Below the pieces are notes generated by a model. The model did no database searches and was not told the origin of the DNA. It saw only the letters and a list, made by a program, of their open reading frames with translations. A stretch of 64,000 nt of DNA from a virus, in IMG/VR virus record IMGVR_UViG_3300018411_000639, positions 32,001 to 96,000 of that record; one strand, given 5' to 3'. The translations under genes were made by a program, and so were the position numbers. This document shows, piece after piece, positions 1-56,700 of this stretch; the stretch's first letter is position 1, and the number at the start of each line of letters is the position of its first letter.

Positions 1-213
1 GATGTCTGAATCCGTAAGGCTGTTCTCTGCAAGGTACGCATCTATCTCCTGATAAAAGTAACTCAGGATGTACGCACTGCTTAGGATGTGAAAATTATCA
101 TAGAGGTAAGGCTCTACGGCCTGTATAGCTGTCGGAATTGACTTCTCAAACTGCTCGACTTCCCCTGTTGCCACCCGGACAACGGAGACCGTTATTTTGT
201 AGCGAATGTCCAT
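1..213 (-). CDS. Hypothetical protein, 5' part only (runs off the window edge)
   Basis: ATG at 213 preceded by a GAGGGGAA RBS; open frame MDIRYKITVSVVRVATGEVEQFEKSIPTA... to the window edge. Confidence 0.7.
   Translation of the reverse strand, partial: MDIRYKITVSVVRVATGEVEQFEKSIPTAIQAVEPYLYDNFHILSSAYILSYFYQEIDAYLAENSLTDSDI
129..144 (+). repeat. Dispersed 16-bp motif copy (CTGTCGGAATTGACTT)
   Basis: Exact 13-bp core TGTCGGAATTGAC shared with five other sites. Confidence 0.75.
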
Positions 214-239
214 AAGATACTTCCCCTCTTTAACACAAT

Positions 240-281
240 AAAAGAGGGCACCGGTTTACTAATTGTTAAACCAATGCCCTC
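240..281 (-). terminator. Rho-independent terminator
   Basis: Minus strand GAGGGCATTGGTTTA-ACAATTAG-TAAACCGGTGCCCTC followed by TTTTATT, just after the stop of 292..1395. Confidence 0.75.
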
Positions 282-291
282 CTTATGTTAA

Positions 292-1395
292 TTATGTTCG
301 TTTAAATGATCTAAATCCAACGACGCTTCCATCATACAAGGTTGGCAGAAAGGCGACTCCGGACAACTCCTTGTCGGAAATGTCCCAATAAGCCTCATCC
401 CACTTGAAATGACCCCACATAATCGGAGCCTCGGAATGAATTCTATCTCGGTAATATTTTAGCAAATCGGTTGCGGTACTGTCAACGTGAAACAGCTCGT
501 TCCGAAGCTTCAAATCCGCGTGATCATGCACTTGATGCATTTCTAGACCTGTGATGTAACTGACCTCGAGTTCGACTCCTTCGAGCCTCGGATCACCTGA
601 AAGCAGTACATGACCGGTCTCGCTCAGGAGCACTTCTTCTTCGGACAGGAGCTTCCCGTTGACTTGAACGGAATTGAGTACCACCATCGGGTCTTCGATC
701 AGGAAGTCCGAACCGCCGTTCAGCCAGACCGCCTCTTTCCGTAAGTTCAGTTCTCTGGCAATCCCGTTCATAAGTCCCTCTCGGTGAGCACCTGCAGGGT
801 TCTTGAAGACATCCATCAGGCGAGACTTGTACTCTCTGTTCCGTTCTCCGTGTATGCGCGGGCACTCCAGGATCAAACCGAACTCGTCAAAGAAATTCCA
901 GACGGGATGGACGGAGAGCGACTGTGTGTACCTCTTCCCTTTTACGGCAAAGCTGATTTGCCCGTCCGGGCAAAGAAGGTCACTGTCGTAGGGTTGGCGC
1001 ACATACAGGATGTTCCTGCTTGTATCAATGAAGTAAAGGTCATGACCATACAATTCGTTGTACTCGATACCCACCAGACCGATGCCGAAGAAGTGAGCGA
1101 GTTTCCGTGCTTTCCGCAAAGACCCCGACGACGAGAGGACTTCTTCCAACTCGTCGCTTGCAAGGTTCATTGGGATAATCGTTTTGTAGGCTATATCAAC
1201 AAAGTCGAGGTCGGCTGTTTCGATCGTTGTTTGCTCATAGGCATATTCGAGGACGTAACGAACCTCGTCCAGTTTCACTCCCGCGATGTCCAGGAACTGC
1301 GCCCCTAAACTATCGGAAGACTTCTTACGAATCTGGAACCAGTGAGGTAGCGCGTTTAGAATTTTTTCCGTATAACGAGCGAACTTGGAACTCAT
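292..1395 (-). CDS. Putative baseplate wedge protein (gpI/Mu gp48-like position)
   Basis: 367 aa; motif FDEFGLILECPRIHGERNREYKSRL resembles the LD-x-G...R-x-x-GE-x-D-x-x-YR-x-R wedge signature; lies two genes downstream of a gpJ-like gene. Confidence 0.55.
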   Translation of the reverse strand: MSSKFARYTEKILNALPHWFQIRKKSSDSLGAQFLDIAGVKLDEVRYVLEYAYEQTTIETADLDFVDIAYKTIIPMNLASDELEEVLSSSGSLRKARKLAHFFGIGLVGIEYNELYGHDLYFIDTSRNILYVRQPYDSDLLCPDGQISFAVKGKRYTQSLSVHPVWNFFDEFGLILECPRIHGERNREYKSRLMDVFKNPAGAHREGLMNGIARELNLRKEAVWLNGGSDFLIEDPMVVLNSVQVNGKLLSEEEVLLSETGHVLLSGDPRLEGVELEVSYITGLEMHQVHDHADLKLRNELFHVDSTATDLLKYYRDRIHSEAPIMWGHFKWDEAYWDISDKELSGVAFLPTLYDGSVVGFRSFKRT

Positions 1396-1408
1396 GAGGT
1401 CCCTCCTT

Positions 1409-2065
1409 TTAGATAACGATATTCTTGAACTTCAGACCTTTGAGGTCGCCGTTGATTGTTCCAAGCGATTCTTCCGCATCCTGTATTGTGTCAACAGAGA
1501 CACCAAGATAGACGTCCAGTATGACGGCAGCTCTCACGTAATCCGTGGTATAAAAAGGAGAAGAACAGATGGAGTAGATTTTGTCCTGAAGAACCTGGAT
1601 CTTATCGTGATTCCATACTGCGTACTTCTTCATCACAATCGCCATGACTTGCTGCTCTTCGTGCGTGTAGTTCTGATTCCCTATGAAGTAATTACCGTGC
1701 CGTTTCACGATAGATTCCAAAGCTTCCATGTGGGCATTATAGAGGTGTGTTGCGTTGTCGATCTCTCCGGCATCAACCTTCTTGGCCAAGACTAACAAGT
1801 GATTGTGGAAGGTGTCTAACTGGTTGGCGAGAACGTCACGGAAAACAGCTTCCTTTCCTTTGTTCGTCATAACGAAGGTCATCTGAATGTGTTGTTTCAG
1901 CATGTCGCAACGGACGAAGAAAGGATGTAACTCCAGAGCAACAGCGTGATGTAGCGGTTCTTCCTCTTTTTGTTCGGATCTCTTTTTTGTGATGATGGTA
2001 AGGAGTCCGAAAACGCCGCTAATGAAAGCGACGAGAACTCCCTCTGTTATCAAATACGATGGCAT
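1409..2065 (-). CDS. Hypothetical protein with N-terminal membrane anchor
   Basis: 218 aa; RBS AAAGAGG; hydrophobic GVLVAFISGVFGLLTII followed by the basic stretch TKKR. Confidence 0.7.
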   Translation of the reverse strand: MPSYLITEGVLVAFISGVFGLLTIITKKRSEQKEEEPLHHAVALELHPFFVRCDMLKQHIQMTFVMTNKGKEAVFRDVLANQLDTFHNHLLVLAKKVDAGEIDNATHLYNAHMEALESIVKRHGNYFIGNQNYTHEEQQVMAIVMKKYAVWNHDKIQVLQDKIYSICSSPFYTTDYVRAAVILDVYLGVSVDTIQDAEESLGTINGDLKGLKFKNIVI

Positions 2066-2081
2066 GAGTGTGGCCTCTTTT

Positions 2082-2900
2082 CTACAGGATTATAAGCGCA
2101 TCAGCGTCCGAGCTCAGCATGAAGCGCTCGTTCCACCGACAGTCTTGGTTGACAAACATAGCAGGTAATCCATTTAAACTGAAACGCTCACAGGTATAGG
2201 TCACGATGCTTGCGTTGACATTCATGACCTCCTGCGTAATCTGATCGGTGGTGATGGCTTCTCCGACTCTGCGAGTGGCGAAGAAATCCCTCAACGCCTG
2301 TCTGACGCTGTACTTGAGGTCTTGACTGACGGCGACGCTTGTTGTGTCTTTTGTCATCAGCTTGAGTGTGAGTTTGACGCTCACGGCATCAGGGCCTGTA
2401 ACCTCAAAGCGTGTTCCGTAGGCGGTCACCTTTTCCACGTTAGACTGGACAGAGGCGATGATTTCCGGAGCAGGCTCTGGGGAGTCTGTCGTGATCAGCA
2501 CAGAGAAACTGCCCGTCCCGTAGGAGTATTTCTTGAGGATGGCATCCTGAACACCGGACACACTGAGAGCAGCCAGACGAACGGCGGTTTCGTTTGCGGT
2601 CGCCGTGGTGAGGACGCTCTTGGATATCCGATAGCGATAATCCGCATCTTCTTCTCCGACTAACCTCTCGCAAGCCATCAACGCACCAACCGCTTCTAGG
2701 TAAGACCCTGTTGCGGTTGACACGAAGGACTGCACATGATTTAAAGTCAGGACATCGTAAAGGTCTGCGATGTTTCTGTTGACGAGGCCGAGGAAGAGTT
2801 TTGCGATCGAACCCGCCGAGGTGCTGAATCCGACATTCTGGAGGTTCTGTAAATCTTCTTCTTGCAGTTCTTCAAAAGTTTTCGTGTTGAGTAATATCAT
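2082..2900 (-). CDS. Baseplate J-like wedge protein
   Basis: 272 aa; ATGSYLEAVG...ERLVGEEDADYRYRI and ALSVSGVQDA motifs typical of Baseplate_J family proteins; position after a gp25-like gene. Confidence 0.75.
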   Translation of the reverse strand: MILLNTKTFEELQEEDLQNLQNVGFSTSAGSIAKLFLGLVNRNIADLYDVLTLNHVQSFVSTATGSYLEAVGALMACERLVGEEDADYRYRISKSVLTTATANETAVRLAALSVSGVQDAILKKYSYGTGSFSVLITTDSPEPAPEIIASVQSNVEKVTAYGTRFEVTGPDAVSVKLTLKLMTKDTTSVAVSQDLKYSVRQALRDFFATRRVGEAITTDQITQEVMNVNASIVTYTCERFSLNGLPAMFVNQDCRWNERFMLSSDADALIIL

Positions 2901-2905
2901 TTAGC

Positions 2906-3310
2906 TTAGCCTCCAATCTTGACGTTGATTCCTTTGATGAGATCGAGCTGAACAGAAAGCGACGTTGCGCTTAGTCCATCCAGAGTTCGCAGGTAAACCT
3001 GATACGTGACATCTGTTGCTGATTCCTGTTCGGCCTTGATGAAGATTTCCCCGTAATCGTAGAGGTCGCCTTCCATTAAGGATGCGAGTATTTTCTCTTT
3101 CCCTACCGCACGGGATGAAACATTGTTGGGTTTGCCGAGAAGCGCTTCTAGGTCAGCCCCGATGTGATCACTGAACCAACCTTTGCGGATGGACTTGATT
3201 CTGCAAAGAGCCATCTGAGTTCGGAGGTCGTCATCCATCTGTCGCGAAATGTCGTGCGTCTCTGCATCCATCAAGAATTCTCCGTTACTGTCTAGACCAA
3301 AATCAAACAT
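2906..3310 (-). CDS. Putative gp25/gpW-like baseplate protein (sheath initiator)
   Basis: 134 aa; GWFSDHIGADLEALLG motif, size, and position between the spike and J-like genes. Confidence 0.6.
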   Translation of the reverse strand: MFDFGLDSNGEFLMDAETHDISRQMDDDLRTQMALCRIKSIRKGWFSDHIGADLEALLGKPNNVSSRAVGKEKILASLMEGDLYDYGEIFIKAEQESATDVTYQVYLRTLDGLSATSLSVQLDLIKGINVKIGG

Positions 3311-4274
3311 CTTCTTCTACCTCTTCTCCGTTCAGAATCTTGATGATGTCGTCCCTGTTTGTGATGAACTCCCCATCCAGAAGGACTTGGGATCCCCTCA
3401 AAAGGATGCGATTATTTGCTTCCAGTGTGATGTTCTTTCCGCTCTTGACGTGAACATCGCCTTCGGAACTGACTGACCACTTCCCGACTTCCATGGTCGC
3501 CTCTCCAGTCTTCAGGGCGAAGGTTTCAGCCTCCACCCCAAAGTGTTTCTGGATGACAAGTTTCATGGAGTCCTCGACGGTGGCATTCAGGTTCGTCACA
3601 TGATGGTTTTCGTTCCGAGTGAAGAAGTTGATGGATTGCGTTTTGGGGTCGATGCGGATGCCCTGATCCCCTTCAACGAATATGTCAATCATCCCATTGT
3701 TGCGAAGTTTTATGGTAGAACCTGTCTTGGGATGCGTAATACCAGGCTCTTCCGCTTCATAGAAACTGGTATTCGTCATGGCAGACAGGAGCGTCTGAAT
3801 CGGGTCAACCGTCCAGTCGGCGTACTTGTTTGTGTTCTGGTTGGAGAGGTCGATCCAATCCTCATGAAGCGGAGAAAAAGAAGAGAAGTCGTACTCTTCC
3901 GCTCCGTTGGCTTCCACGAGGTTGTCCGGCAAGTAAGCGCCCTGCTTTTGATGCTGTAGTCGCTTCCTGCTGTGGATCTGGTAGCGTTCGTCAGCAAGTG
4001 CCACAATCTTTGGTTGAAGCAACGACTTGTTGGCGAAGGACACCCACACCTGATCACCTACAAAAGGGCCGGCTGAGTGGAAACCTCCGCTGCCAAGCTG
4101 AATCGGAACGTTCTCGGATGTAAGGAAACCTGCGTGCTTGGGGTCTTTGAAGCTGATGGTCGCTCGGTGCTTCAGTCCGTCGTAAGCCACCACTTCCGCT
4201 AGGACGGTATCGAACTGATTGTTGTCATGCGGTTTAAGGATCTTTTCCTGTATCGCTCGTTTGATCTGGGACAT
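3303..4274 (-). CDS. Putative baseplate central spike (gpV/gp5-like: OB-fold plus beta-helix)
   Basis: 323 aa; N-terminal GPFVGDQVWVSF OB-fold-like motif; C-terminal short beta-repeat strands; follows the hub gene. Confidence 0.6.
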   Translation of the reverse strand: MSQIKRAIQEKILKPHDNNQFDTVLAEVVAYDGLKHRATISFKDPKHAGFLTSENVPIQLGSGGFHSAGPFVGDQVWVSFANKSLLQPKIVALADERYQIHSRKRLQHQKQGAYLPDNLVEANGAEEYDFSSFSPLHEDWIDLSNQNTNKYADWTVDPIQTLLSAMTNTSFYEAEEPGITHPKTGSTIKLRNNGMIDIFVEGDQGIRIDPKTQSINFFTRNENHHVTNLNATVEDSMKLVIQKHFGVEAETFALKTGEATMEVGKWSVSSEGDVHVKSGKNITLEANNRILLRGSQVLLDGEFITNRDDIIKILNGEEVEEDV

Positions 4275-4307
4275 TCGTGTACCTCCTTTCGTCAGTGACT
4301 AATTACT

Positions 4308-7300
4308 TCACTCTGCATCGTCATCCGTTGGGGCTTCTGAGTTATAGACCGCATCACCCGTACCGCCCGGAATGATGTTTTTGCCTCCTTTTACGCCACC
4401 AACGAAAGCCTGTCCTTCCTTATCCAACGGGAAGAGCGTCACGCAGTTATTCCACTGGAACATGTCGAACAACCCCTCAAGAATGATATTCGTTACGACT
4501 TCCCCTGCGATCCATCCGGCCACGGCACCGACCCCGGGAAGGACCGTCCCTCCGGCTAAAGCTAACCCCGTCTTGAGTACGTCAGCAGCTTGCTCTGTCG
4601 TCCTAATTGCCTTGATTGCTTTGAGTCCCGTCTGTGCTGTCTTGACGTGACTCATCAGATCCAATGACTTGATGTAGTCGGCAGAGGTGCTGATGTAGCC
4701 TTTGTAGTCCTTGAATACCTTGCCGCTCTTGACCGCCTGATAGAAGTCCTTCGATAAGGAAACACCCTTTGTTGCGCCTTCGACCGCATTTGCTGCAAAG
4801 GTCCCTGAGCGCACCCCTTGGTTGATTGTCTTGAAGGCAGAGCCGCCACCGTGAATGACGGCACTAGCTGCGCCCATCGTGAGCTTGCGGGTAAAGGAGT
4901 TGGTAGAGGCGATACCGGCCCAAGCAAACATGCTCTTGATGACGTTCCCCTTTCCGGAGTTCTGTGCGTTCGACATGTTCATCAGGCCCGGTGTGATGGT
5001 TGTAACGAAACCTCCTTGAGCACTCATGGAGTGAACGACTTTCCGGACTTCGGCGACGCCGCGGATGCCCGTGTAGGCGTCATACATGTAAAATGTATCG
5101 CAGGGTTTTACGGAAGCGTCACCCAGAAGGAGTAGGCTTCCTTGGTAGGTTTCGCTCCAACTATCAAGCAGGTTTGACACCCCAATCTTGATGGCTGCCG
5201 CTTTCCCGACATCAAAGCCTAGCTTCTCGTAAAGCCAATCCCAACCGAGATAATCCTGAGATATGGTTGTGTCAATTACCGAGGTGTGTTGTTTTGACCA
5301 ATCAATCGACTTGTCGCTGTATAGAGTAGGAGTCGATTTGAGCTCTCCGCCCAGACTGTACATGGCGACAATGTTTGTCTTTACCTCTGAAGAGGAAACC
5401 TTGATTTGGTTGTCCACGATATCACACAAGGAATCGAAGTAATGGAACTGAGAAAAAGTCTTCCCTGCCTCGTAGAGTTTTTCATCCACAATGTCGTACC
5501 GGTACTTGGCAATCCATTGCGGGAGCCCGTAGAAGACACGGCTCTCGAACTGATGGTACATCGGCTGAGCAACAAACTCAGGAACACCTTGCGCCACCAT
5601 CTGCATACAATCCCAAACTGTCTTGTTGTAGATGTTGAAGTTGATGTTCTCTTCTCCGTCAGCGCCGATCAACCATCCATTTGACCCAATGAACGGTTGG
5701 CACTTGTATTTCCCAATATAGAGGTTCTTGCAAAGATCGTATTGCGACTCTTTGGCCAAGTCCGCGAACAAGCCGTTGTTCGAGTAGATTCCGAAATGTT
5801 CGATCCCGAAAGCATTAGGTTCTCCCCACTTTTCGGATAACATGTTCCCTAGTTTATTCTTGCGGGAACGCAACAGGGACGCAATGACATCCGAGGGCTC
5901 TGACCCGAACTTGAAGGCGCCGTTCTCCTGATCCTCTTTGGTGGACACTACGTCGTTGACTAATTCCGCTCCGTCGCTTTGGGCTATGATCGTAACAATG
6001 TCCCCTGCGTCTATGTCGGAAATGACACCATTGAAGCTGATTGGCAACGACATCGGGTTACTGCCATAGCCCATTCTCAGATGGATGCGACAGCCGGGCT
6101 TTACGTTCGCCGTATCGAAGATCATGTTCTTGAGGGCAATCATATTGTCCGTCACCTGCGGGCCGCCTAGCAAACTACCTGTTAGCTTGTACCAACCCAC
6201 GACAAAGGTGTCGCTGACTGCCTCTAGCGCAGTACCGACGAGCGCATCAGGGAGGCCGGCCACCACGTTTACATTATCTGGCGCATGGTCACCGACGTTT
6301 TTGTAGAAATCCCAATAGTCGCTGATGTTGTCACTCACATAAGGAGAGGGTATCTTCGGCGCCTTTGAGATTTCGTTGTAGGCGTTGCTTACCGTGATGG
6401 ATGCGGTGTGGACAGGTTGATCGTTTTCCTGAAAGACGGATACGTCAAGCAAGGAACGGTACGTGTAGAAGTTTGACCAAAGCTTTTGTCCGTCCAACCA
6501 TTCCCCGCCATCATCCACAATCAGGAACATGAACGTAGGGAAGGCCCGAAGCAGGCGACCTCTTGCGGAGTACTCCACCATATCGACCGTCATCCGGTTG
6601 AGCAACTCATCCCCTTCGGCTTCTTCCTGAAAGACTTCTTTGTTCCAGAACTGATCCGCCTTTTCGAAGACGGGCTTGCCGAAGTTATCGAAGTTAAGCG
6701 TTCCTGTCTTCGTTCCCAACGTCTTGCCTGCATCGGTTTGACTCCATGAATAAGTGGACACCGCAGGAGAAGCGGCGACAGAAGACCCCGGCGTACCGAG
6801 GGAGCTACCGTCATAGGCTTGACCTGTCAGCTGAGCGTAGTAGGCGGTCACGTTCGGAACCCAATGGACGTTTAGACCAGTCGGATCGTTAGCGGCTCCT
6901 ACGGGGCAGTATTTCGATCCAATCGCTTCGATCGTAACAAGCCCTTGGTCGATGTAACCTTTCTTCAGGTTGCTAAAGGTGAACGCAAGTCCTTCATCAA
7001 ATGTAGCAAACCGCTTGAGCGTGGACCAGTTGTTATTCCAGTCCATGATGCCGCCGGGGTTGTTGTAGTTACGGATAGCGTTGGATGTCCCGTTACCTGT
7101 TTCGTGAATTACGATAGCCGCAACGATTGCGGGGTCCACGCCGTACTGCTGCCCCAAGGAGATGAAGGTGGACCCTCTTCCCGCCAAGACACCTCCTAGT
7201 GTTTGGTTCATCGTATCCGCAGAAACCTTACTCTTTGTTTCAACGACTCTCGGTGCAGATTCGGTTCCATCGAAGGACAGGTTGCCTGTGGCCTTCCTTG

Positions 7301-9578: not shown

Positions 9579-9601
9579 CTTTTCACTCTCCTTTTATAGG
9601 G

Positions 9602-12600
9602 TTAAAACAAACCGGATAGCTTCTCTTGCAACCAGCTGTCGCTGACTTGAGAAGTGTCGTCTTGGGTATTCAGGTTCACGTTCAAGTTCGGGCCGTTGAC
9701 TTTCTCAACCGTTCGTTTGACGGCCGATAGAACAGCGGAACTGTCTTGGCTGCCTTTTGCTTTCACATGAAACTGAACGCCTTCGTTTCCGACATAAGCT
9801 TTTCTTTCTTTGGACGAAGGAGCGATGCGTGGCGAAACCGCAGGCTTCTGGTCAAACTGTCCGTTGGAGTCGGAGGACCCGCTTCCGTTCGGACGGTGAG
9901 AAGCCTTCAGAGCAGAAGGAGGAGCAGAGAACTGCATCCCTGCAAGCAGACTGGAAAGCCCTACGGCTACACCGACCCCAATCATCGTTTTCCCGAATTT
10001 ACCCATCGGCTTGCGGGCAATTTGTTCAACGGCATCCATCCCTGCACTGGCGACACTCTTTCTTTCTCCGGCACTTTGTCCTGTCTTGCGGATTGCGTCG
10101 TTGATGTCTGAGATACCACCCATGACTTCGTCCTCAAGGCCTCGGGTATTCTGTACGGTATGCCTGTCCATCGCTTGTCTTGCTTCCTCGATGGATGCGC
10201 CGTCCAGTGCTTCGAAGTAGTGGCCGATCTGTTCCGCAGTCTTTCGGGCTGCCTGTGTGTTTCTGGCACCAGAACTTCCTGCTTCGTAGATGCCACGCAA
10301 GTCATTCATGCTGACCTCGTTGATCTTGAGTCCTGCTTGATTGCCGAAAGCGATACGCGCCTCACCTAAGCCTTGGATATTCCGTTCGCTCAGGAAAGAT
10401 TGGATGATGTCGTTGCTGTTCCAATTAAGGTACTGCATCGCTTCGTCAGACTGACTGCTTGCCAAGGTGTCGAAGTCCTCGTCCAGTTGCTTCAGGATGC
10501 CTTGGTTTTGTGTAGAGGCTTGTCTCCAAGGGGTAAGCACGGTTTCTTCTTCCACCGCTTTACTTACGTTCTGATCGTTCAGGCGTTCTGCTGCGCTCTC
10601 GTCCAGGCCTCTCACCTGCTCGGCATAGCGAGTCGTTAACTGTTCGCTTACGTCATGAAGGTTGTAGAGTTGACCTCTCGCCCCTTCTGTCCGTTGGATG
10701 ATCTTCTGAATACCGACATCCCCGCTTGAAGGAGTTGGTATTGTGTCGGAATTGACACCTTTGACGGACGCAGCGTCTCTTGCCATCACGGAGTGACGGA
10801 CTTGTTCTCGTGATTCCGCACTGGCTCCTCGTTCACGGATCTGGTCATTGAACTGACGAATCAGCGAACCGGAGTCCTTGTGTCCCCTACTTCTTAACTC
10901 TCCGGCGAACTGGCTTGTGGCTTTACCTTCGTCCGTCCCGAAGAAACTTTCCTGTGCTCTTTTTGCGATTGCATGATCGTAGCCTTCGTGAGAGAGAATC
11001 GAGGATGCGACTGTTTCTCTTAGTCGATTGGCTCTCTTCCCTCTTTTCGTTACGGTAGACTCTAATACGTCTATTTTATCAGAAGGGGACTGTGATGACA
11101 ACGTCTTCGAGGCGACCAGTGCTTCGACCTGACGAAACTGAAAAGTATCGGCATCCGTCATCGCTTCATCGACAAACTGCTGAGCCCCTTTCGTTATGAT
11201 CTCTTCACGGAAGGCAGGTACATCGCTCCTTGTTCCGATACGGAAACTCTCTTGGATCTTCTGACCAAGGACTTCCATGTCAGCCCCATAGACACGCTGT
11301 TGCTTCTTCGTCTTCGTCTCCTGAAGGACAACGAATGGCTGACGGGAGCGCTCCCCTTGGCCGTAAGATTTCACTTGGTAGATACCCGGATCGTAAACAC
11401 CCTCATTTGGCATCAAGTAATTACTCTTGTCCAAGGCTACTCCGTCGATTCGGATAGCGGAGGGTTGTTTTGCTCTCCGGATGGCTTCCTGTTTTGCTCG
11501 GATAACCTCACTGCTTCCTTCTGCTGTTTCGTTCACAACAGACTTCAGGCGATCCATCAGACCTCTGGGGTTCGGTTGACTTCGGATAAGCGGAGAGTTC
11601 CAGATTTGGGTTGCACGAGGATCTTGGAACATCTTGCTCAAGGATAACAGGGATTGATTCATCGGGATATTCATATCGACTGATCCGTTCAGAATGTCAG
11701 CTGCCACAGGAGCCGTTCCTTTCGGGAAGATCGGACCTTCCATAGCGTCGATTACGTTCTGAAGACCCATCTCATGTTCTCCGTTGGCGAGTTGCGTCAG
11801 ACCTAAGCGGTACTTCGGAACCTTGGTAAGCTCTTCCCCACCATCCTTGATATGTTTAACGTCGATCGGCTTTTGTTCGGATTCATCTGTCATCTTCAAG
11901 AGATTATCTAGGTGGACTTGATCCTCTTTGCTGTCCTTAAACACTTCCTCACCGATTTCACGCAAGACATAGTTTGGTGTGGAGATGTAACCGATAGCCC
12001 CTTTGTTGTGCTTGTTCTTGATGGCGGTTGTAACGACAGCTTCGTTGTGCAGATAATTGTCTTTCAGTTTCCCTGTCGCCGTGTCCGTAGGGAGATTCTG
12101 CTCTCCCTGGATGTATGCAGCATGACGAAGGATAGCATCCCCGGCCTCATCTTCTGGATTGGAAGATCCAAACTTGATGGAGTCACCCACGTACTCGTCG
12201 ATTGCAGCAGCCATGTGGCCGTCTTTCCCTGCATTGGTAAAAGATTGCGCCTCGTAGAGTTTACGTGTCGCTAACTCAGCGGGGTCTTGTTCGTTCAACA
12301 GGCGAACGACATTGCGACCTTTCTCTTTATCGTAGCTGGATTCTAGGTTGAGGATCATGGCCTCCATATCTCCATCGACGTCGGCGTTCCAACTATTCGC
12401 TGTGTACCCTTGAAACATGAGGGTGCGACCCTTTAGTTTGTCGTTCAAGCGGACACTGACAGCTAAGTCGGAACTGGTCTTAAATACCGGGTCACGTTTA
12501 CCTGTCCCGAAAATACCGCGCTCCCTGACGTATTCCAAGCCCGCTTTCTCGAAAGCCTCGTCTGTCGCAGCAACGTAGGCGGGGGAGTTCTTCCAGTCAC

Positions 12601-25106: not shown

Positions 25107-25712
25107 CTATAATATCTGGATGGAGTAGTCTTTTGTGAATCCGCTATTCTCCATGACGATCTGTGCATAGGTTGACGGGATGCCCGCTTTTCCGATAGCC
25201 ATCTTACGGAAGTCGTACTTGCTTGGCCAAAGCGTACAGGTCTCACAAATGATTTCTTCTCTCTGCAGAGGGTCAAGGTTTGGGATAGCTGCGAGCTGTT
25301 TGTACTCGAAGCGGTTCAGAGTGCGGAAGACGAAGTACTGTCCCATGATTTCGATAGCCATAAGGTTGTAGTCTTCCCATTGGCGCTTCCACGTTTCGAC
25401 TTGTGTGATGGTAGGTCCACCCACAAAGAGGGGTTCGTCATAAGCGTAGAGTTCAGGGTTGTCGCCGAGTTCTCCTTCTTCCGGCTCGCTTCTCAGCGTA
25501 GGTAGGTCTTCCCACTCTTCCGGTTCGTTCTGCAGATGAACACTTTCCTCGGTTTCTTCGCTTGTGTCGGAATTGACACCTTCAACTACTTCATTGTCAT
25601 CTCGGAACGATGCGTACAGGTCTTCGTTTGCTGCAGGTTCCTCACTGATTTGCTTGGATAGTTTTTCTTTGGCTTGCTTTGCTAATTGATCTAGGTTTCC
25701 TCCGCTGAACAT
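25107..25712 (-). CDS. Putative tail assembly chaperone (paralogue 1)
   Basis: 201 aa; acidic N-terminus; FVFRTLNRFEY..EEIICE motif; position after the tube genes. Confidence 0.6.
   Translation of the reverse strand: MFSGGNLDQLAKQAKEKLSKQISEEPAANEDLYASFRDDNEVVEGVNSDTSEETEESVHLQNEPEEWEDLPTLRSEPEEGELGDNPELYAYDEPLFVGGPTITQVETWKRQWEDYNLMAIEIMGQYFVFRTLNRFEYKQLAAIPNLDPLQREEIICETCTLWPSKYDFRKMAIGKAGIPSTYAQIVMENSGFTKDYSIQIL
25564..25579 (+). repeat. Dispersed 16-bp motif GTGTCGGAATTGACAC
   Basis: Perfect copy inside the chaperone gene. Confidence 0.85.
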
Positions 25713-32141: not shown

Positions 32142-32909
32142 CTATAAATCATAAGTAATGTCTGAAGCTTTATAAATATCGGGTTCAGCCCCTATATCTA
32201 CCGTAGGTTCGGCATTGACCTCTAAGTCAATGCGCTTGATGGTACTGAGTCGCACGGCACTAATCCGTTCCAGACGGATGTAGTACATCAGACTTCGCAT
32301 CGGGATACCATCTAAGAAGTGCATGGATTGACGAGGATTTACTTCCTTGAGGAAGAAGATCTCGCTGATGCCCTGTCTTTTCAGATATCCTGCGTAAGCT
32401 CCGATTAGTCCTTCGAACCGAGCCATCAGCTTGCGGGTCTCTAGGTTGGTCCTGCCCCAAAAGTTGAACTCCACAATGCAATCGAACCACTGTCGGTATA
32501 GATTGAATGCGTCACCCGTCTTCTGTCCGGCCACCACTTCGAAAACCGTATCTGTTAGCGTGGGCTTGATGGATGTTTTTTCAGCAACCTCTCTGCTGTT
32601 CACATCGAAGGTAATCTGAGGAAGAACCAGTTTGTCCGGATCTTCCCCTCTCGGATAGTCCAGTGAGAGGACCCCCCACCCGTCACCCCATGCTGCGTTG
32701 AGAACTCTACGCAACAAAATCCCAAGCTGTTCGATATCGTCGATGTTTTCATCGGCTGCCATGCGAGCCTTCTCGCTCTCAACCGAACTTTCATCCGACT
32801 GAATGTAAGAGATGGCTTCCGGAGCCTTCTTTCGTGTCGGAATTGACACATCTGACGAAGGCTTTCCGAAATAGCTATCGTAAGCTACCTGATCTATCCC
32901 ACTGGACAT
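32142..32909 (-). CDS. Putative tail terminator/completion protein
   Basis: 255 aa; QWFDCIVEFNFWG..SLMYYIRLE motif; position immediately before the sheath gene. Confidence 0.5.
   Translation of the reverse strand: MSSGIDQVAYDSYFGKPSSDVSIPTRKKAPEAISYIQSDESSVESEKARMAADENIDDIEQLGILLRRVLNAAWGDGWGVLSLDYPRGEDPDKLVLPQITFDVNSREVAEKTSIKPTLTDTVFEVVAGQKTGDAFNLYRQWFDCIVEFNFWGRTNLETRKLMARFEGLIGAYAGYLKRQGISEIFFLKEVNPRQSMHFLDGIPMRSLMYYIRLERISAVRLSTIKRIDLEVNAEPTVDIGAEPDIYKASDITYDL
32834..32849 (+). repeat. Dispersed 16-bp motif GTGTCGGAATTGACAC
   Basis: Perfect copy; read as VSIPT, a different frame from the GVNSDT copies. Confidence 0.85.
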
Positions 32910-35893: not shown

Positions 35894-35922
35894 ATTATAC
35901 TATAGGGTGTCGGAATTGACAA
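35894..35922 (-). promoter_or_regulatory. SigmaA-type promoter overlapped by the dispersed motif and a 9-bp inverted repeat
   Basis: TTGTCA-17 bp-TATAAT then GAGGTG RBS and ATG at 35876; ATAGGGTGT/ACACCCTAT inverted repeat at 35902-35931. Confidence 0.75.
35907..35922 (+). repeat. Dispersed motif copy GTGTCGGAATTGACAA (only intergenic copy)
   Basis: 15/16 match; covers the -35 box of the promoter. Confidence 0.85.
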
Positions 35923-39728: not shown

Positions 39729-39998
39729 TTAGGCGACGCTAACCGTCACCCTTGTTACGTTTTTCGTTGCCGGGTCATAGGTGTAAGTCTTTGTGGTTGT
39801 ACGTCCACCTTCCACGGTTGTTTCCGTTTCGATGTTATCGTCAACATCGTAAGTGTATGCCGTGTTTCGTTCGATTGCGCCAGTCAGGGTTTCTGTGATG
39901 ATGTGACCCTGTACGTCGTATTCGTAATCTACAGCATACGCGCCTTCGGTTACGCCGGCAAAGATTTCCAATGACCGCAGTCGTTTAAGTGCTCTCAT
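39729..39998 (-). CDS. Small YD/RHS-repeat-like protein
   Basis: 89 aa; YEYDVQGHIITET, YTYDVDDNIETET, YTYDPAT. Confidence 0.65.
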   Translation of the reverse strand: MRALKRLRSLEIFAGVTEGAYAVDYEYDVQGHIITETLTGAIERNTAYTYDVDDNIETETTVEGGRTTTKTYTYDPATKNVTRVTVSVA

Positions 39999-45722: not shown

Positions 45723-46688
45723 TTAGTATTTGACTGTTATAGAGAATCCGTCGATCAGCGGAATAAGGAAGACAATCTTCCCGTTCGTGATCAGGTAATC
45801 ATTTCCATGCTCGAGCATCAAGCCATCAATGTAGACGACCGAGTTACTCGTAACACTTTCCGGAAGATAGTAAGTGTCCTCCGAAGACGTCACATCAAAC
45901 TCATGCTCTTTATAGGAGAGAGTTATCCGGTTCTCCAATTCCTGAAGTTTGTCTGTGATGTAAGGCAGGGTAATCAGGTTCGGAAGGTTAGCCGGCAATA
46001 GCTGCTCCAGATTCCCGACACGAGAGGACATTTCCTGAACAAAAGCCATCAGAGTTTCTGCTGTTGCGCTTTCCAGAATCCCTGCAGTCTTTACAAAATC
46101 AAGGGCTTCGATCTTGGCCAGACGAAAAGCCAACTCGTTCGTAATACCTGAGTTCGTCACAACCTGAAGGACTTCGCCACCTGAAGAACTTGACCGCAAT
46201 AACTGGCCAAGCCCGTCGTACTCGTACTCCTTCTGTCCGATCAAAAGTCCCTCGGTATCGTAGAAGGCTTCTTTTGTGATATTTCCTTGTCCATCGTAGG
46301 TGTAGTGGGTGTCATAATTCAGCTCACCACGAACCGTCTCCTTGGTTATGTCTCCGTTGGGATTGTATTCGTAGGTGCGAGCAACCGTCAACCTCTCCAA
46401 TACCTCGGTAGCACGGAACAGATCCATGTTCGTCAGTCGTTCATTCAGCGAAGCATTGAACCCTCTCGCGTCAGCAATCTCTTGCTCGAGCGCCTCTGTG
46501 GAAAGGGCCGCTCCGTCGATTGTTTCCTGTACGGCAGCTTGCACGGTAGCCATCCGGCCTTCCAGTTCGATGACTTTTCCTGCGTTCGCCTCCGTCTCGA
46601 CATGGAGACCTCGAATTTCTTCTCCGAGGTCTTTGTACTGAGGATCGGTAGCTTTGATGTACTTTAGCTTATTCGTTGTAGCGGGCAA
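45723..46688 (-). CDS. Fibre-associated protein with YD repeats
   Basis: 321 aa; coiled coil, three YxYD/N-x-x-G repeats, C-terminal repeat module. Confidence 0.65.
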   Translation of the reverse strand: MPATTNKLKYIKATDPQYKDLGEEIRGLHVETEANAGKVIELEGRMATVQAAVQETIDGAALSTEALEQEIADARGFNASLNERLTNMDLFRATEVLERLTVARTYEYNPNGDITKETVRGELNYDTHYTYDGQGNITKEAFYDTEGLLIGQKEYEYDGLGQLLRSSSSGGEVLQVVTNSGITNELAFRLAKIEALDFVKTAGILESATAETLMAFVQEMSSRVGNLEQLLPANLPNLITLPYITDKLQELENRITLSYKEHEFDVTSSEDTYYLPESVTSNSVVYIDGLMLEHGNDYLITNGKIVFLIPLIDGFSITVKY

Positions 46689-46848: not shown

Positions 46849-46863
46849 ATCTTCTCACCTCTC

Positions 46864-49854: not shown

Positions 49855-49859
49855 TTTAA

Positions 49860-50855: not shown

Positions 50856-50859
50856 TCCG

Positions 50860-52140: not shown

Positions 52141-52151
52141 AGCTTCTCCTC

Positions 52152-53243
52152 CTATTCGAGAATGATTTTAAATCGGTAACTGTCTGCGAAGGCCGGTCCG
52201 AACTGCGTGATGTCTCTGTCTATCTTAATCAGGAAATCGTAGCTGACATTAGGGAGCAAGTCAGGTAGTTCCAGTTTCGTCTGGTACGTCGGCGTGTCGC
52301 TCGCAAAGGCCAGCGTAACTTGATCGCCTCCGCGATAATAAGACACAGGCGCCACAGACAAAGCGATACCTCTAAGTGGTTCCGCTTCTCTGCTGATGAT
52401 GGTTACAGGAAGAACTGTTTCCTTGCCGGTAACCCTGCCGAGATCAAAGATATTGGCGTTAAGTACCGCTTGCTCTGCTATCAGGACTTCGACGTTGTAC
52501 GCGTAATCGTACACATCCCCTCCGCACAACGTAACGTCTTCAAGTCCACCAATCTCAATTCCGTCTGCACCCACAACCGACAATCTTGCGCTCGTCAGAG
52601 GGAGTAGTACTGTAGTCAGATCAACCAGTGCTTTCCCGTTGGAGTTCTTTACGGCGTCCTGATTCGCAAGGACATTTACGCCATTTTGGTCATAGATGCG
52701 AACGGTCGCATCGCTCGGAACGTTATTGACCGACAGTAGGTTAGATTTGTAGAAAGATACACCCAAGACTCGCAGCATATCTGAAACATAGGTCTGGACT
52801 CCATCAATGAAGAATCCGACTTCGTTCGCATCGTTCATTTCGGAATTACCTGCGTTCACCCAAGTCAGTCCGTCGCGCGAGATACAGAAAGTATGTACGC
52901 CCTTTTCTACGCACAGTTTGATGTAACGAAAGAGACTAAGCTCTTTCGCTCCTGTAAAGTAGTGTTGGCATTCAATCTGGTTCCCTGTATTCGACAAAAC
53001 CACAAGACCCGAAACGTCAGATAACGTCTCGGGGTTGTGGTAGATCTGGGCTTGCATGACATAATCGTGAGAAGGTGTCGGAATTGACATGGTGAGACGT
53101 TCTTCTCCATGCTCCAACCCAACATACCCCGCCTCAAAGACCACCCGACTGTAATCGTTGGGCGACAGGTTCCATAGCAAATTGCTGCTCGCAAAGTCAT
53201 CTTCGAACAGGTATCCACTGGAAACTTTCGTCAAAGTAGCCAT
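52152..53243 (-). CDS. Putative ConA-like lectin/glucanase-fold virion protein
   Basis: 363 aa; FEDDF..W..SGLVV..YIKL..SRDGLTW pattern. Confidence 0.5.
   Translation of the reverse strand: MATLTKVSSGYLFEDDFASSNLLWNLSPNDYSRVVFEAGYVGLEHGEERLTMSIPTPSHDYVMQAQIYHNPETLSDVSGLVVLSNTGNQIECQHYFTGAKELSLFRYIKLCVEKGVHTFCISRDGLTWVNAGNSEMNDANEVGFFIDGVQTYVSDMLRVLGVSFYKSNLLSVNNVPSDATVRIYDQNGVNVLANQDAVKNSNGKALVDLTTVLLPLTSARLSVVGADGIEIGGLEDVTLCGGDVYDYAYNVEVLIAEQAVLNANIFDLGRVTGKETVLPVTIISREAEPLRGIALSVAPVSYYRGGDQVTLAFASDTPTYQTKLELPDLLPNVSYDFLIKIDRDITQFGPAFADSYRFKIILE
53075..53090 (+). repeat. Dispersed motif copy GTGTCGGAATTGACAT
   Basis: 15/16 match; read as MSIPT. Confidence 0.85.
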
Positions 53244-53253
53244 GTTGCACTCC

Positions 53254-53688
53254 TTACTCTAGGCCAACAGTGATATCCATTGGAACGTTCTTGACAACTT
53301 TAACGTTCTCTTTCCCTAACGAACGGATCAACGGCTCTGCTGACTTCATTGCGGATTGTAGAGAAGCGTGGGAAGAACTAGAGAACCAGCACTCGCCTTT
53401 TGCACGAGCATATTTCTCTACGATGATATGGGAAGTCAGGGTACCGGATGTCTCTGCAATCAGAGAGTTGATTTCCTCTACTCCGTCAAACAGGAAGACC
53501 ATGTCGTATTTTGGATTGGATGCTTGTTGCTCAACGAGCATCTCAGCAGAATCGACCCCCGCCGTTTTTCCGTATGCGCGGATGAATTTCGAGTTGAAGT
53601 CGTAGACCGACGTTGCGGTATTGGATACCGGTTTCTTTGTTGTTGGGTGAATGTAACGGTAAAGCACGTTGTATTGTACTGATGCCAT
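53254..53688 (-). CDS. Hypothetical protein
   Basis: 144 aa; AGGAAAG RBS; tightly packed in the operon. Confidence 0.7.
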   Translation of the reverse strand: MASVQYNVLYRYIHPTTKKPVSNTATSVYDFNSKFIRAYGKTAGVDSAEMLVEQQASNPKYDMVFLFDGVEEINSLIAETSGTLTSHIIVEKYARAKGECWFSSSSHASLQSAMKSAEPLIRSLGKENVKVVKNVPMDITVGLE

Positions 53689-53706
53689 GAATGTTCACTT
53701 TCCTTC

Positions 53707-56700
53707 CTAGGTTTGTCTGATGGTCTTTCTTTTGCCTTTCGACTTCTTGTTGTGGTGCAAGTCGAAGTAATCCTCGAGGCGCTGAATAAGATCCGTGATC
53801 GCCAGATTTCCGTGAACCGCATCTTCAAAGAACGATTCATTGTTCTGGTAAAGGTCTTCGTAGATAGCAAGTTTCTTTATCAGTTCGTCTAGGACTCGGT
53901 TTCCACTCCCCACCACGGGGTGATACTCTGTAATGATGTCCGCCTTAACCATGTCGGAAATGACAACGTTGGCTATGTTTATTATACCACTGCCTTCGCC
54001 ATGGTAAAGCAATTTCAATTCGTTTTTCAGTCCATCTCCGGGCTTCAGCAAATCAAAGCTCAGATCCAGAGGAGAACCTTGGAATGCACCCTGTTGTTCT
54101 CCGTTCAAGAAGACCTCAAAAGCCCCTCCTGTCTGATAGGCTTTCATCTTGATAGACGTATTGGCCGGGTTCTCGATGAAGAAGGTAACGGAGCTTTCTT
54201 CGGTTACTACCGTATTCGTTAGGGTGTATTTAGATGTGTCGATGTGCATATTGGTTTTCTCGCAAGGGATAGCACTCTCTCCAGTATGGAAGCCCCCTTG
54301 AAGAGGTTCGTAGATATAGCTGACACGGTACCGCGAGTTCTTCAGGATAGAAGCCTCTCCGTACCACCTAATCAAGCGTAAGACACGATAGGCTTGTTGC
54401 TGTAGGCCTGGCGGAATCTCTAGCTGAATGTAGGCGTCCATGAACTCGAGCATCTTAGCGACCGAGTCCCGCATATCCATTGCTCCGAACTTGAAGATGT
54501 TCTCCTGCCACGTTTTGTTGTAAATCAAAATCATGTGACGGAGCAGGCTGACGTTTACATCCAGATACTCTCTGGCGATACCCTTGTACTCCGGCAAAGG
54601 GTGTGAGATCGGTCGCTCAACCAAGAAGGAGCCATCGGCCAATGTGTTGACAAGTTTCAGCGGCTTCAACGTATCCGGATCAATCAGACCTTCTTTATAA
54701 GAGGAATAGTCGTAATCCAACTGAGGAAGCAGTAGTTCATCGACACCTCCCGCTGTCAAGTTGAGCAAGTCATCATGATCGCTTGCGTTGTACACCCATT
54801 CGGTCTTGGGCGTGTAGCGGAGATCTTTCAGCACTTTAGCTAGGCCGACGTACTTCTCAAGTTCTGGATGCGTCTCAATAGATCTCTTGTCGACCAAGTA
54901 CCTGCTCGAATTCCGGTCATAATTGGTGGCGCGGTCTTTCTGCTCAAGTAAGAGGCTACCACCTTCGTCAAGGATACGATAAAGTTTGACCAAAGGAACG
55001 TCGCTTTGATGTCTGAAGATATTCTTCTCAATCTTGAGCGACAGAGAGGCTTGGGTCAGCGTTGTGCTTTTCTCGGCCTTGACCTCCAAGCCGACATCTT
55101 CTGGCTTGGGAACTTCAACGGTCCCCGACACGACCTTAGCTGCTCTCGTGCCATCCTGAAAAACATCCGTACTCTTTTGAGGTGACCCCAAGCGAAGCCC
55201 ATCCTCTTTGTCTCGAGCATCGTTGACGACACCATCAAAGCGGGTATCGAGGTCAGCTTCCGTTGTTTCTTTGGAATAACGTCCGAGGCTGATGTCGCTC
55301 TCATGGATGCCTGTCGTCTTGAAAATCGCATCCACTGATGTATCTTTTGTTTCGAATACGGACCGGCCTCTCTGATCTACTTCGATATACAGTCCTTCAC
55401 AGTTTAGCCCGTTTACGGTCGCATCAATCGCAACCATCTCTTTGGCCAGAGCAATAACGTACTCTCTTTTGTCCAGGAAAGAACCGTTGAGTGAGACAGG
55501 GTTCATCTTTCGACCTCTCGCCTGAAGAGTAATTATTCCTTCTTGAATCCCGACAGCCAGTAGCTTCGACAAGTTCTTCTGCTGACTCTCTGTCCAAGCC
55601 GCGCCCATCCCTCGACCAAAAGAGATATCCTGGAACGGAACATCTATGTCGACTTCCAGTTTTTGGTAGCGAAGACTGAACAGCTCGGAGATGCCCGCTG
55701 ACAAAGAACTTTTCCCAGCCGAGACATTTTCCTCCAAGCCGAAGGTCGGCAAGTCTTTCGACAGGAACTGGCCTTCTTCTCCGTACATGAATTGATGTTC
55801 AGACCGGGAGGCGGATTGCACAGCATCTCTGGAAACACCATAAGACTCCTTCCAGAGAGATGTCATCGCGTCAGATGGATCGTTCTGGAATGTTTTCCTG
55901 TCTCGGGATGCACTCTGGAATGGCCGGCCTTCGTAGAGATCCATGAGGCGACCGAACCAATTCTCCTCTGGTGACAACAGGTCTGCTTGATAGGCGTCTT
56001 TCGATAGAATCTGCACGCCTTCGATTGACTGCACGCCGTAGGCTTCCTTTTCCAGTATCCAGTCGATAGCACTTACAAGAGCCTGCTTTTCAGGAGAGGA
56101 CAACCCAACGAAGTTCAGGTCGTAGAAGTCTTTCGGATCTTTTGTAATCTTCGAGATAAAACTGGCAGCATTGGCAGCATAGACTTCTTTGACGTTACTG
56201 TCGCTTGCTATCTGGTTTTCTTGTACGAGAGCTGACTTGCTTTCTCCTGACGTGAATCGGACAGTTTCCGAACCCAAGTCTTTGTACTCCTTGGACGCAC
56301 TGTCTTTGTCCGTCATGTCTGTGACGTTCTCGCTCATCTCTTTTTTGTTCGCATCCATTTGACAGTCGGAGGAAGATTCAACGCCTTTTGTTCCTGACCC
56401 CGCAGAGATTTCATCCCACTCGAGGAAGAGAGAGAGAAAGAACTTCTCCAGGGCTAGACTTTCCCGAACCAGAGCTGATAATTCCCGAGTGTCCCAAAAA
56501 GTAGCCTCAGAGCTTGACGCTTCTTTTGGTCTCCCGGGTTCTAGGCTTTGAGGGCCGGAGGAAAAAGCTTCGGGTACGTCTTTTTCGAGGATATGAGTTT
56601 CTTCGACACGAGACCCCTGTGAGTCCTTCCCTCCGAACAGAGAGGCAGATTCGCCGATCTCAAGGTCGCTCTTTGAAAGAGATGTAGGTGACCCATTGAG

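Follow-up and report, generated by a model that had tools for sequence, protein, structure and literature searches.

A 16-bp element is dispersed, in one orientation, along the genome of the virus studied here, and we infer that it forms a DNA-level system of putative protein-binding sites. We tentatively read it, with a confidence slightly short of even, as the operator or roadblock ("stoperator"-like) site of a putative repressor. The window, which is the whole stretch of 64,000 nucleotides that was analyzed, corresponds to positions 32001-96000 of a 112.6-kb contig. The phage is a jumbo myophage with a distant relationship to Bacillus phage 0305phi8-36, and the contig makes up its structural arm. 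Because nearly all of the genes of the contig lie on the minus strand, the sense form of the 16-mer is GTGTCAATTCCGACAC.

The exact 13-mer TGTCGGAATTGAC was found six times in the window, at positions 130, 10744, 25565, 32835, 35908 and 53076, always on the plus strand, and had no match across 100 dinucleotide shuffles. When up to three mismatches to the 16-mer were allowed, the window yielded nine matches against 0.75 expected, two of which are the TGTCGGAAATGACA variants (6013 and 53951). At 21730 there is a weak match on the minus strand that is probably due to chance, and eight sites in the window were considered good. The six exact cores and two variants listed in the initial annotation were thus all recovered, as was their orientation on a single strand. 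The annotation had also proposed a scan of the whole genome, and on the whole contig the enrichment held. The 13-mer occurred 12 times (11 on the plus strand and 1 on the minus strand), about 20 sites matched the 16-mer with no more than three mismatches, and TCAATTCCGACA, with 14 copies against 0.02 expected, was the most over-represented word of the contig. About 19 of the 20 sites are co-oriented with the genes and so follow transcription; the single inverted site is located within a divergent control region, 15 nt past a weak rightward promoter match recognized by eye. The sites are spread across 105 kb and are often paired or tripled at distances of 100-900 bp, with one copy near a promoter and the rest in the first gene.

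Conservation is limited to the 16 bp, and neither flanking conservation nor a partner element was observed. The right half, TTCCGACA, is invariant and is the most conserved part, followed by TGTCA; the variable positions are 1, 7, 8 and 16. The central AATTCC lacks symmetry, and conservation is weaker in the left half of the site than in the right. The same 16-mer is present in four related metagenomic contigs, partly at orthologous positions, and 0305phi8-36 carries the variant TGTCAATTCTGACA. The exact 16-mer is a marker of the clade fragments that have been found to date, and it picked out a related contig from IMG/VR.

In the contig, 12 of 19 sites fall inside ORFs whose coding status was confirmed by homologues, and six of these are located 60-270 nt past a confirmed start codon. 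In the window, seven of the eight sites are in ORFs and are read in two frames, as (V)NSDT/ISD and as SIPT, while the third frame is never used, which agrees with the seven intragenic copies in two frames described previously. A codon-aware null was obtained by shuffling synonymous codons within each ORF while keeping the proteins. Under this null, about 0.18 intragenic sites with at most one mismatch were expected and 8 were seen, and about 0.01 sites with no mismatch were expected and 4 were seen. Therefore, protein coding alone fails to explain the intragenic copies, and the proposed conservation at the DNA level was borne out.

All of the sites in the window are on the minus strand in their sense form. 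The site at 129..144 (AAGTCAATTCCGACAG, with the exact 13-mer core) occupies codons 24-29 (KSIPTA) of a 1729-aa ORF, and a sister site at contig position 31933, just beyond the window, is located 196 bp downstream. This region is preceded by a promoter-like match, TTGACA-18-TAAAAT (11/12; 456..485, minus strand), after which come a strong hairpin with a T-run (~234-283), the ORF start at 213 and then the two sites. The variant at 6013..6028 (GTGTCATTTCCGACAT) encodes the peptide GVISDI within a 1756-aa lysin-domain virion protein; because this peptide is conserved in relatives, the sequence of this site may partly reflect protein constraint. The perfect site at 10743..10758 encodes GVNSDT in the 3024-aa RNAP-like ORF, 315 nt downstream of a promoter-like match, TTGTCA-17-TAAAAT (10/12; 11073..11101, minus strand), inside the same giant ORF. 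Another perfect site (25564..25579) covers codons 45-50 of a 201-aa ORF, within an acidic linker that homologues either lack or have in a different form. The perfect site at 32834..32849 covers codons 21-26 of a 255-aa ORF directly upstream of the major sheath gene and has a counterpart at the same protein position in the relatives L138 and L152; the L138 counterpart is read in the other frame, so its conservation is at the nucleotide level. At 53075..53090, ATGTCAATTCCGACAC forms codons 52-57 (MSIPTP) of a 363-aa ORF, where homologues have other residues. The variant TTGTCATTTCCGACAT (53951..53966), near the 3' end of a 1250-aa ORF, is located 14 nt downstream of a sigma-A-type promoter match, TTTACC-16-TATAAT (10/12; 53981..54008, minus strand). 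The only non-coding site of the window, TTGTCAATTCCGACAC (35907..35922), precedes the start of a tail-region gene (280 aa) by 30 nt. It overlaps a sigma-A-type match, TTGTCA-17-TATAAT (11/12; 35894..35922, minus strand), whose -35 is the first six bases of the site and which is the best promoter match between 25 and 37 kb of the window.

The coupling to promoters was evaluated with the 12 best sigma-A-type matches on the gene (minus) strand; the other strand has only 4. At five of the 12, a site overlaps the promoter or lies no more than 40 nt downstream of the -10 (random mean 0.15), and at nine a site is found within 600 nt (random mean 1.1). Neither count was reached in any of 20,000 random placements. 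Two sites, at window position 35907 and contig position 109054, overlap a -35, and the latter is also 14 nt downstream of a perfect TTGACA-18-TATAAT promoter. The site-linked promoters include the conserved promoter of the endolysin-holin cassette, that of the replication operon and the consensus promoters heading the arm. In the endolysin (Amidase_2, LysM and SH3)/holin cassette, the order promoter, site and ribosome-binding site is kept in three phages with ~68-70% nucleotide identity, and conservation in the leader is mostly confined to the motif, with 12 of 16 columns invariant, and the hexamers of the promoter. All three phages have a further site within the endolysin gene, in its variable linker; these sites are matched by position, as the local alignment is poor. 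The densest cluster, three sites in 400 bp with spacings of 111 and 273 bp, is at and inside the first gene of the replication operon, which encodes proteins of 220 aa (ORF220) and 260 aa (ORF260), a primase and a helicase.

Under the operator reading, the 16-bp element would be the recognition site of a sequence-specific DNA-binding regulator, a repressor of transcription by the host's sigma-A RNA polymerase. Primary copies would act from about +3 to +40 of sigma-A-type promoters or by overlapping the -35, and the units controlled would be the endolysin-holin cassette, the replication operon, tail genes and the genes at the beginning of the 105-kb leftward arm. Copies located hundreds of bases downstream or deep in long genes would serve as auxiliary operators or as orientation-dependent elongation roadblocks, as for the stoperators of cluster A phages. 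Because the site-linked promoters are near consensus, they need negative rather than positive control, and the lysis cassette, which is behind such a promoter, must be held off. The regulator would then be a lysogeny or timing repressor. It is plausible that the phage is temperate, since the contig encodes a XerD-like recombinase (XerD match E 6e-35, with LRH..A, LLGH and IY.H visible by eye in the alignment) and relatives of the sheath are found on 136-260-kb plasmids of Clostridium, Paenibacillus and Bacillus; to our knowledge, 0305phi8-36 is not known to be temperate.

Among the analogies offered initially, the operator or stoperator fits best with the orientation of the sites and their sigma-A-type promoters, while the centromere does not fit and the guidance of an RNA polymerase is not supported. 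In cluster A mycobacteriophages (L5 gp71, TipsytheTRex repressor), more than 20 short asymmetric sites are dispersed over promoters and other parts of the genome with an orientation that strikingly tracks transcription, and the target is the host RNA polymerase (PMC9283540). Similarly, about 20 copies of one short asymmetric site are present here in 112.6 kb, and the orientation of about 19 of the 20 follows transcription. However, the site described here is a 16-bp quasi-palindrome in a jumbo myophage with a Firmicute host, its binding and elongation block are predictions, it is strongly associated with promoters and yet mostly intragenic, and no gp71-like repressor was found on this half-genome. 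What we take to be the L5 consensus shares only TGTCAA with the motif. Auxiliary operators within genes are known from lac O1/O2, where DNA looping is involved, and Bacillus phage phi105 has asymmetric, directly repeated operators. The arrangement of one site beside a promoter and one or two 100-900 bp downstream in the first gene resembles these systems, although looping operators do not need a fixed orientation and looping leaves the lone copies deep in 5-9-kb genes unexplained. In the large temperate Bacillus phage SPbeta, the 15-bp SPBRE is present in about ten promoter regions, and the master repressor MrpR, which binds it, keeps lytic genes off (PMC10516654). SPBRE is confined to promoter regions, whereas the motif here is also intragenic. 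MrpR resembles tyrosine recombinases but is no longer catalytic, and a dead recombinase of this type was rejected as a binder encoded on the contig because the only recombinase there keeps the conserved XerD motifs.

Several observations weigh against a repressor. First, the location of 12 of 19 sites in ORFs would be atypical, as described stoperators are mostly in short intergenic spaces. Second, in 0305phi8-36 the variant stands before the major head gene but no sigma-A promoter is visible there, and two of its three exact copies in that phage are antisense. Third, the 600 nt upstream of six sites contain no promoter match. In addition, no repressor gene was found with Pfam or PHROGs among ~65 ORFs scanned on this half-genome. 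The sole helix-turn-helix candidate in these ORFs is an 86-aa ORF adjoining the site at contig position 108749, and its recognition helix is also conserved in relatives without the motif. The gene for the binding protein may belong to the host or to the half of the phage genome that is missing.

An unlikely alternative is that the motif acts in RNA, where a hairpin, GUGUC-AAUUCC-GACAC, would be bound by a phage protein for antiterminator loading (nut/boxB-like), processing or stability. The sites are in sense orientation and at four promoters fall within the first ~25 nt of the predicted transcripts; the core hairpin has about -6.4 kcal/mol, and the stem in the endolysin leader is longer by 4 bp here and by 3 bp, with different bases, in L015. 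Moreover, a helical, very basic protein of 89 aa is encoded by the gene that comes first behind the consensus promoter P1, and strong intrinsic terminators are located within the arm (contig 108281, 70322, 60855 and 32242). At the endolysin promoter, the site follows the -10 at variable distances (9, 13 and 44 nt) but precedes the start codon by a fairly constant 22-41 nt, and this suits a promoter or leader-RNA element at least as well as an operator. Lambda nut (boxB, a hairpin with a 5-bp stem) and ops/RfaH are likewise short, orientation-dependent elements in the leaders of long operons, but they have one or two copies rather than about 20, and no boxA-like partner, covariation or N-like or NusG-like factor was found here. 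Of 17 sites that differ from G1/C16, only 3 still pair or wobble, a number that does not exceed chance, and at least one extra flanking pair is formed at 7 of 30 sites against 7.5 expected. The inner 4 bp never vary and hence are uninformative on covariation. A conserved RNA hairpin received no support, and a structured RNA element was disfavoured for want of compensatory pairing. No Rfam family matched; at the strongest promoter, the site points against the leftward transcript, and the antisense copies in 0305phi8-36 also speak against RNA. Because positions 1 and 16 vary without compensation and the flanks do not extend the stem, recognition of sequence is favoured over recognition of structure.

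We consider it improbable that an RNA polymerase encoded by the phage, either the giant two-barrel enzyme or a YonO-like enzyme on the missing arm, uses the motif as a self-contained promoter, with transcription restarted every few kb along the 105-kb one-directional arm. The giant gene (window 9602-18676) encodes a 3024-aa protein that, judged from its modelled fold, is a two-barrel RNA polymerase: its DxDGD motif is invariant, the model has a pLDDT of 79, and all 50 of the PDB fold matches listed are RNA polymerase entries. A 165.8-kb contig on record encodes the same 3024-aa protein. Like T7 class II/III promoters and those of the N4 virion RNAP, which form hairpins, the motif is compact, conserved, dispersed and co-oriented with the genes, and it has no partner element. 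Between the end of its non-coding copies and the start codon there are 22-41 nt in this phage, L015, L161 and 0305phi8-36, where one copy precedes the major head gene. A phage-specific promoter class was proposed for 0305phi8-36 (PMC2147016). However, that phage has a different element, nnnnCGTTCGCACGnnnn followed by a TTTGTA-like element, in 19 copies with a covarying outer stem, and this is most likely the 21-bp candidate promoter meant by Hardies et al. No site is present in the spacers upstream of the major capsid, sheath and tube genes. In addition, the motif does not travel with the giant RNAP: the giant-RNAP relatives G001-G003 and G006 have no comparable motif, and 0305phi8-36 and G004 have a motif variant with no detectable giant-RNAP homologue. 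On these grounds a phage RNAP promoter class was disfavoured, and the earlier suggestion that the sites guide the encoded polymerase was not sustained. The many intragenic sites, six of them shortly past a start codon, also disagree with a promoter, which would leave the coupling to sigma-A promoters, including the two -35 overlaps, unexplained.

A broader version, which we regard as doubtful to much the same degree, is that the motif is a signal of phage-specific transcription machinery (a promoter or an ops- or nut-like signal for processivity or antitermination re-loading) for the giant virion-type two-barrel RNAP or a partner factor; if so, transcription would be carried through the 105-kb one-directional arm despite its intrinsic terminators.

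A role in DNA metabolism, as replication-initiator boxes, a centromere, partition or condensation site, or a strand-specific nicking site, is very improbable: the cluster in the replication operon, the location of all but one site on one physical strand (as for the nick sites of T5-like and phiKMV-like phages) and the plasmid life of relatives would suit it, but the 111- and 273-bp spacings do not resemble those of iterons, the sites extend across 105 kb without clustering by partition genes, the only ParB-like match in the scanned ORFs is a marginal PHROG (E 0.009) on the 86-aa ORF mentioned above, and the promoter and gene-start coupling would have no role. The genome-organizing function suggested earlier was therefore abandoned, and a parS-type centromere, which is palindromic, orientation-independent and near a ParB-type gene, was rejected for these dispersed and oriented sites.

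If the operator reading is true, stoperator-like control would reach beyond actinobacteriophages, from which it has been described, to a lineage of ~200-kb Firmicute phages and phage-plasmids, with one regulator and with sites at promoters and along genes that all face the direction of transcription. This would explain how the lysis cassette, the replication operon and the 105-kb virion arm are kept silent despite promoters that look constitutive for the host polymerase.

The core of the 16-bp site, TTCCGACA, recurs in this genome well beyond chance. Six exact copies of the 13-mer TGTCGGAATTGAC are present in the window, always on the plus strand as the initial annotation had described, and 100 dinucleotide-preserving shuffles yielded none. 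When up to three mismatches to GTGTCGGAATTGACAC were allowed, nine matches were found in the window against 0.75 expected, including two TGTCGGAAATGACA variants at window positions 6013 and 53951; a weak minus-strand match at window 21730 is probably due to chance. The window spans bases 32001-96000 of a contig of 112,616 bp. Across this whole contig, the exact 13-mer is found 12 times and sites with at most three mismatches number about 20; the most over-represented word of the contig is the 12-mer TCAATTCCGACA (14 copies versus 0.02 expected). A codon-aware null was also applied, in which synonymous codons were shuffled inside every ORF while the protein and codon usage of each were kept. 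Eight intragenic sites with at most one mismatch were observed, compared with approximately 0.18 under this null; the motif is therefore enriched over a codon-aware background, where the initial annotation had named a lack of such enrichment as grounds for refutation.

Conservation stops abruptly at 16 bp, and neither flank carries a partner element. Positions 4-6 and 9-15 are invariant, while positions 1, 7, 8 and 16 vary. A search of both strands revealed no -10 partner at a fixed spacing from the motif. Two candidate elements were rejected: TAGATAC, which follows two sites, does not recur, and the motif's antisense TTGACA lacks a -10 and so was not accepted as an antisense promoter, the exception being the -35 of promoter P2 (contig 109054). 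To our knowledge, none of the Firmicute regulator boxes Spo0A, CcpA, TnrA, PurR, CodY, ComA and parS fits the motif.

The contig, an IMG/VR viral record, was estimated by CheckV to be about 51% complete. Tail-sheath searches group the contig with Bacillus phage 0305phi8-36 (37% identity) and with Moorella phage MTATph1 (33%), and, from the best match of each ORF and the 0305phi8-36 gene table, the gene order is that of the left (virion-gene) arm of 0305phi8-36, reversed. Neither the sheath as a single-protein query in IMG/VR nor megablast against phages returned a match. A 98%-identical relative (P0001) came from a 47.9-kb contig, and a protein identical to the 3024-aa RNA-polymerase-like protein of this phage (P0121) is encoded on a 165.8-kb contig. 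Sheath relatives were found on 136-260-kb plasmids of Clostridium, Paenibacillus and Bacillus, and thus the lineage appears to include plasmid prophages. One relative, G006 (IMGVR_UViG_2645727757_000001), encodes a YonO-like ORF in addition to a giant RNAP-like one; its sheath is 42% identical to that of this phage, as is that of Clostridium baratii str. Sullivan plasmid NZ_CP006906.1, and the two records, each of 185,364 bp, are probably one and the same jumbo phage-plasmid.

Between about 109 kb and 3.6 kb of the contig, nearly all genes lie on the minus strand, and the motif therefore reads GTGTCAATTCCGACAC on the gene strand. The far end of the arm encodes two ORFs of no assigned function (220 aa, in a 675-bp region with three sites, and 260 aa), an AEP-type primase, a DnaB-like helicase, a PD-(D/E)XK nuclease, RuvC and a beta-lactamase-like protein. 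In the region of contig 2547-4618 (L135:2547-4618), a XerD-like tyrosine recombinase, whose conserved motifs were recognised by eye in a XerD alignment, is encoded on the plus strand, opposite to the genes of the arm; it adjoins a class-A beta-lactamase / D-Ala-D-Ala carboxypeptidase-like gene whose start is preceded by a motif site at a distance of 41 nt. A Pistol self-cleaving ribozyme was matched over its full length outside the window (72 bits; gathering score, 34.5), on the plus strand at contig 111689-111759 (L137:15689-15759), directly after a 188-aa plus-strand ORF in a rightward gene block. RHS-repeat matches were present in two virion-region proteins (window 45723-46688 and 39729-39998, minus strand).

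The main new result is the link of the motif to host-type promoters. With a criterion of at least 10 of 12 matches to TTGACA-(16-18)-TATAAT, 12 promoter matches were found on the gene strand versus 4 on the other. A site overlapped the promoter or lay within 40 nt downstream of its -10 in 5 of the 12 gene-strand matches (random mean 0.15), and a site was found within 600 nt of 9 (random mean 1.1); in 20,000 random placements, neither value was ever attained. At the head of the arm, P1 is a perfect TTGACA-18-TATAAT with a site (contig 109054) 14 nt after the -10, and P2 (TTGACA-17-TATTAT) takes as its -35 the TTGACA within that same site. The endolysin promoter (TTGCAC-17-TATAAT) has a site 9 nt after its -10, and the replication-operon promoter (TTGACT-17-TATACT) has one 16 nt after its -10 and two more within the first gene. 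At window 35894-35922, the first six bases of a site form the -35 of TTGTCA-17-TATAAT, a promoter that an independent scanner also ranked best of its region, and the promoter at window 53981-54008 has a site 14 nt downstream.

Downstream of the endolysin promoter lies a gene for a protein with Amidase_2, LysM and two SH3 domains, and after it a holin gene. This pair is located between the terminase and portal genes on the minus strand (contig 101217-102613; L137:5217-6613) and has its own conserved sigma-A promoter. The first gene after P1 (contig 108764-109033, minus strand; L137:12764-13033) lies between two motif copies and encodes a very basic helical protein of 89 aa, for which no relatives were detectable. 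A strong terminator-like hairpin at window 234-283, downstream of an 11/12 promoter match and just about 20 nt ahead of a 1729-aa ORF, suggests a regulated leader.

Among 19 good sites, 7 are non-coding and end 22-41 nt ahead of a start codon with a good ribosome-binding site. The other 12 fall within ORFs, mostly in N-terminal parts or variable linkers, and their coding status is confirmed by homologues that align over them. They are read as V-N-S-D-T or S-I-P-T and never in the third frame, in agreement with the two frames initially proposed.

A search of IMG/VR with the exact 15-mer returned 57 single matches, among them ten larger contigs with one copy each; by our estimate, the matches other than L015 are consistent with chance singletons. 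L015 is a true relative, with about 68% nucleotide identity and collinear with contig 95.4-105 kb, and contains four copies, all sense-oriented. Related contigs also carry the motif: L161, obtained from a portal search, contains the form with A at position 8 three times, and two copies occur in L138 and one in L152. In the endolysin leader, compared among three phages, the -35, the -10 and the motif are kept (12 of 16 motif columns invariant), while the rest mostly is not, and the distance from the -10 to the site is 9, 13 and 44 nt. The endolysin linker contains a site in all three phages, which correspond by position only because the alignment there is poor. A site in the N-terminal linker of the pre-sheath gene is shared, and L138 reads it in another frame; the constraint therefore acts on DNA. 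L015 and L161 both have a further site, at a fourth position, for which this phage uses other codons to encode similar amino acids. In 0305phi8-36, the variant TGTCAATTCTGACA occurs in three exact copies, one of them 37 nt ahead of the major head gene, with 6 matches at up to one mismatch versus 0 for the reversed control and 26 versus 3 at up to two; its orientation is not strict. No comparable motif was found in the closer sheath relatives G001-G003 and G006, nor any motif in five more distant Paenibacillus and Bacillus phage-plasmids. In genome contigs, the matches listed for the exact 16-mer were only singletons in unrelated taxa, which point to no host.

The site could form a hairpin whose 5-bp stem is closed by a 6-nt loop (about -6.4 kcal/mol), and a protein-binding element at the RNA level was weighed. 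The endolysin leader is the sole suggestive case, its stem being lengthened by different bases in two phages. However, only 3 of the 17 sites departing from G1/C16 are still paired or wobble, at least one extra flanking pair is present in 7 of 30 sites versus 7.5 expected (a random level), and an Rfam search of the sites matched no family. The inner four pairs, which never vary, say nothing on pairing either way. Together, these observations favour recognition of the motif as a sequence more than as a structure, and an RNA element appears unlikely.

The initial annotation had also proposed, as one option, that the motif guides the encoded RNA polymerase. The 3024-aa protein (window 9602-18676, minus strand), which has a DEDD-like exonuclease motif at its N-terminus, has 36 relatives, nearly all giant proteins; when 21 of them were aligned with this protein, D-x-D-G-D was invariant, an R-x-P lay some 36 residues ahead of that sequence, and lysines were conserved. 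A sequence search against PDB found nothing. A model of residues 1230-2330 (mean pLDDT 79, pTM 0.78) matched, in Foldseek against PDB, RNA polymerase entries in all 50 matches listed, mostly bacterial beta' chains, all with probability 1.0, the low TM-scores being expected for a multi-domain model. Judged by this predicted fold, the central two-barrel RNA polymerase core is real, and this part of the proposal stands; guidance by the motif is not supported, since the two distributions do not match. G001-G003 and G006 have a giant RNAP homologue but no motif, while 0305phi8-36 and G004 have a motif variant but no detectable homologue. Given this mismatch and the absence of the motif from the spacers upstream of the capsid, sheath and tube genes, where other hairpins occur, a phage-RNAP promoter is quite improbable.

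GC-rich hairpins (e.g. GGGGGAG-gctt-CTCCCCC) precede the capsid and tube genes at contig 96552-96610 and 61686-61760. The contig had no match to the RdRP/YonO family or to sigma-70 region 2. A 21-bp promoter class has been proposed for 0305phi8-36 (Hardies et al., PMC2147016). In that phage (L073-L083), we found 19 co-oriented hairpins in which an outer stem, variable and covarying, encloses CGTTCGCACG; a TTTGTA-like element comes next and, after it, a ribosome-binding site (e.g. record positions 144270, 164700, 181417 and 205126). This combination is probably the published class, distinct from the motif; its hairpin nature recalls the N4 virion-RNAP promoters.

A putative operator/stoperator-like site of a repressor is the reading to which we give a nearly even chance. 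Cluster A mycobacteriophages have an operator/stoperator system whose block is lost when a site is inverted (PMC9283540). As in that system, the sites here are uniformly oriented, their two halves are unequally conserved, and extra copies lie a few hundred bases downstream and deep within long genes. The large Bacillus phage SPbeta, with one repressor and a repeated element (PMC10516654), is a second precedent. The weak points of an operator are the many intragenic sites (12/19), the rather constant distance from site to start codon, the copies in 0305phi8-36 that are not strictly oriented, and the failure to identify a binding protein; the sole HTH candidate, an 86-aa HTH/zinc-ribbon ORF, is unlikely as the binder, given that motif-free relatives share its recognition helix. 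Under the operator/stoperator reading, the near-consensus sigma-A promoters of the lysis cassette, the replication operon and the first virion-arm genes would need to be held off, and the repressor would act at the conserved site, which separates promoter from gene or lies on the -35.
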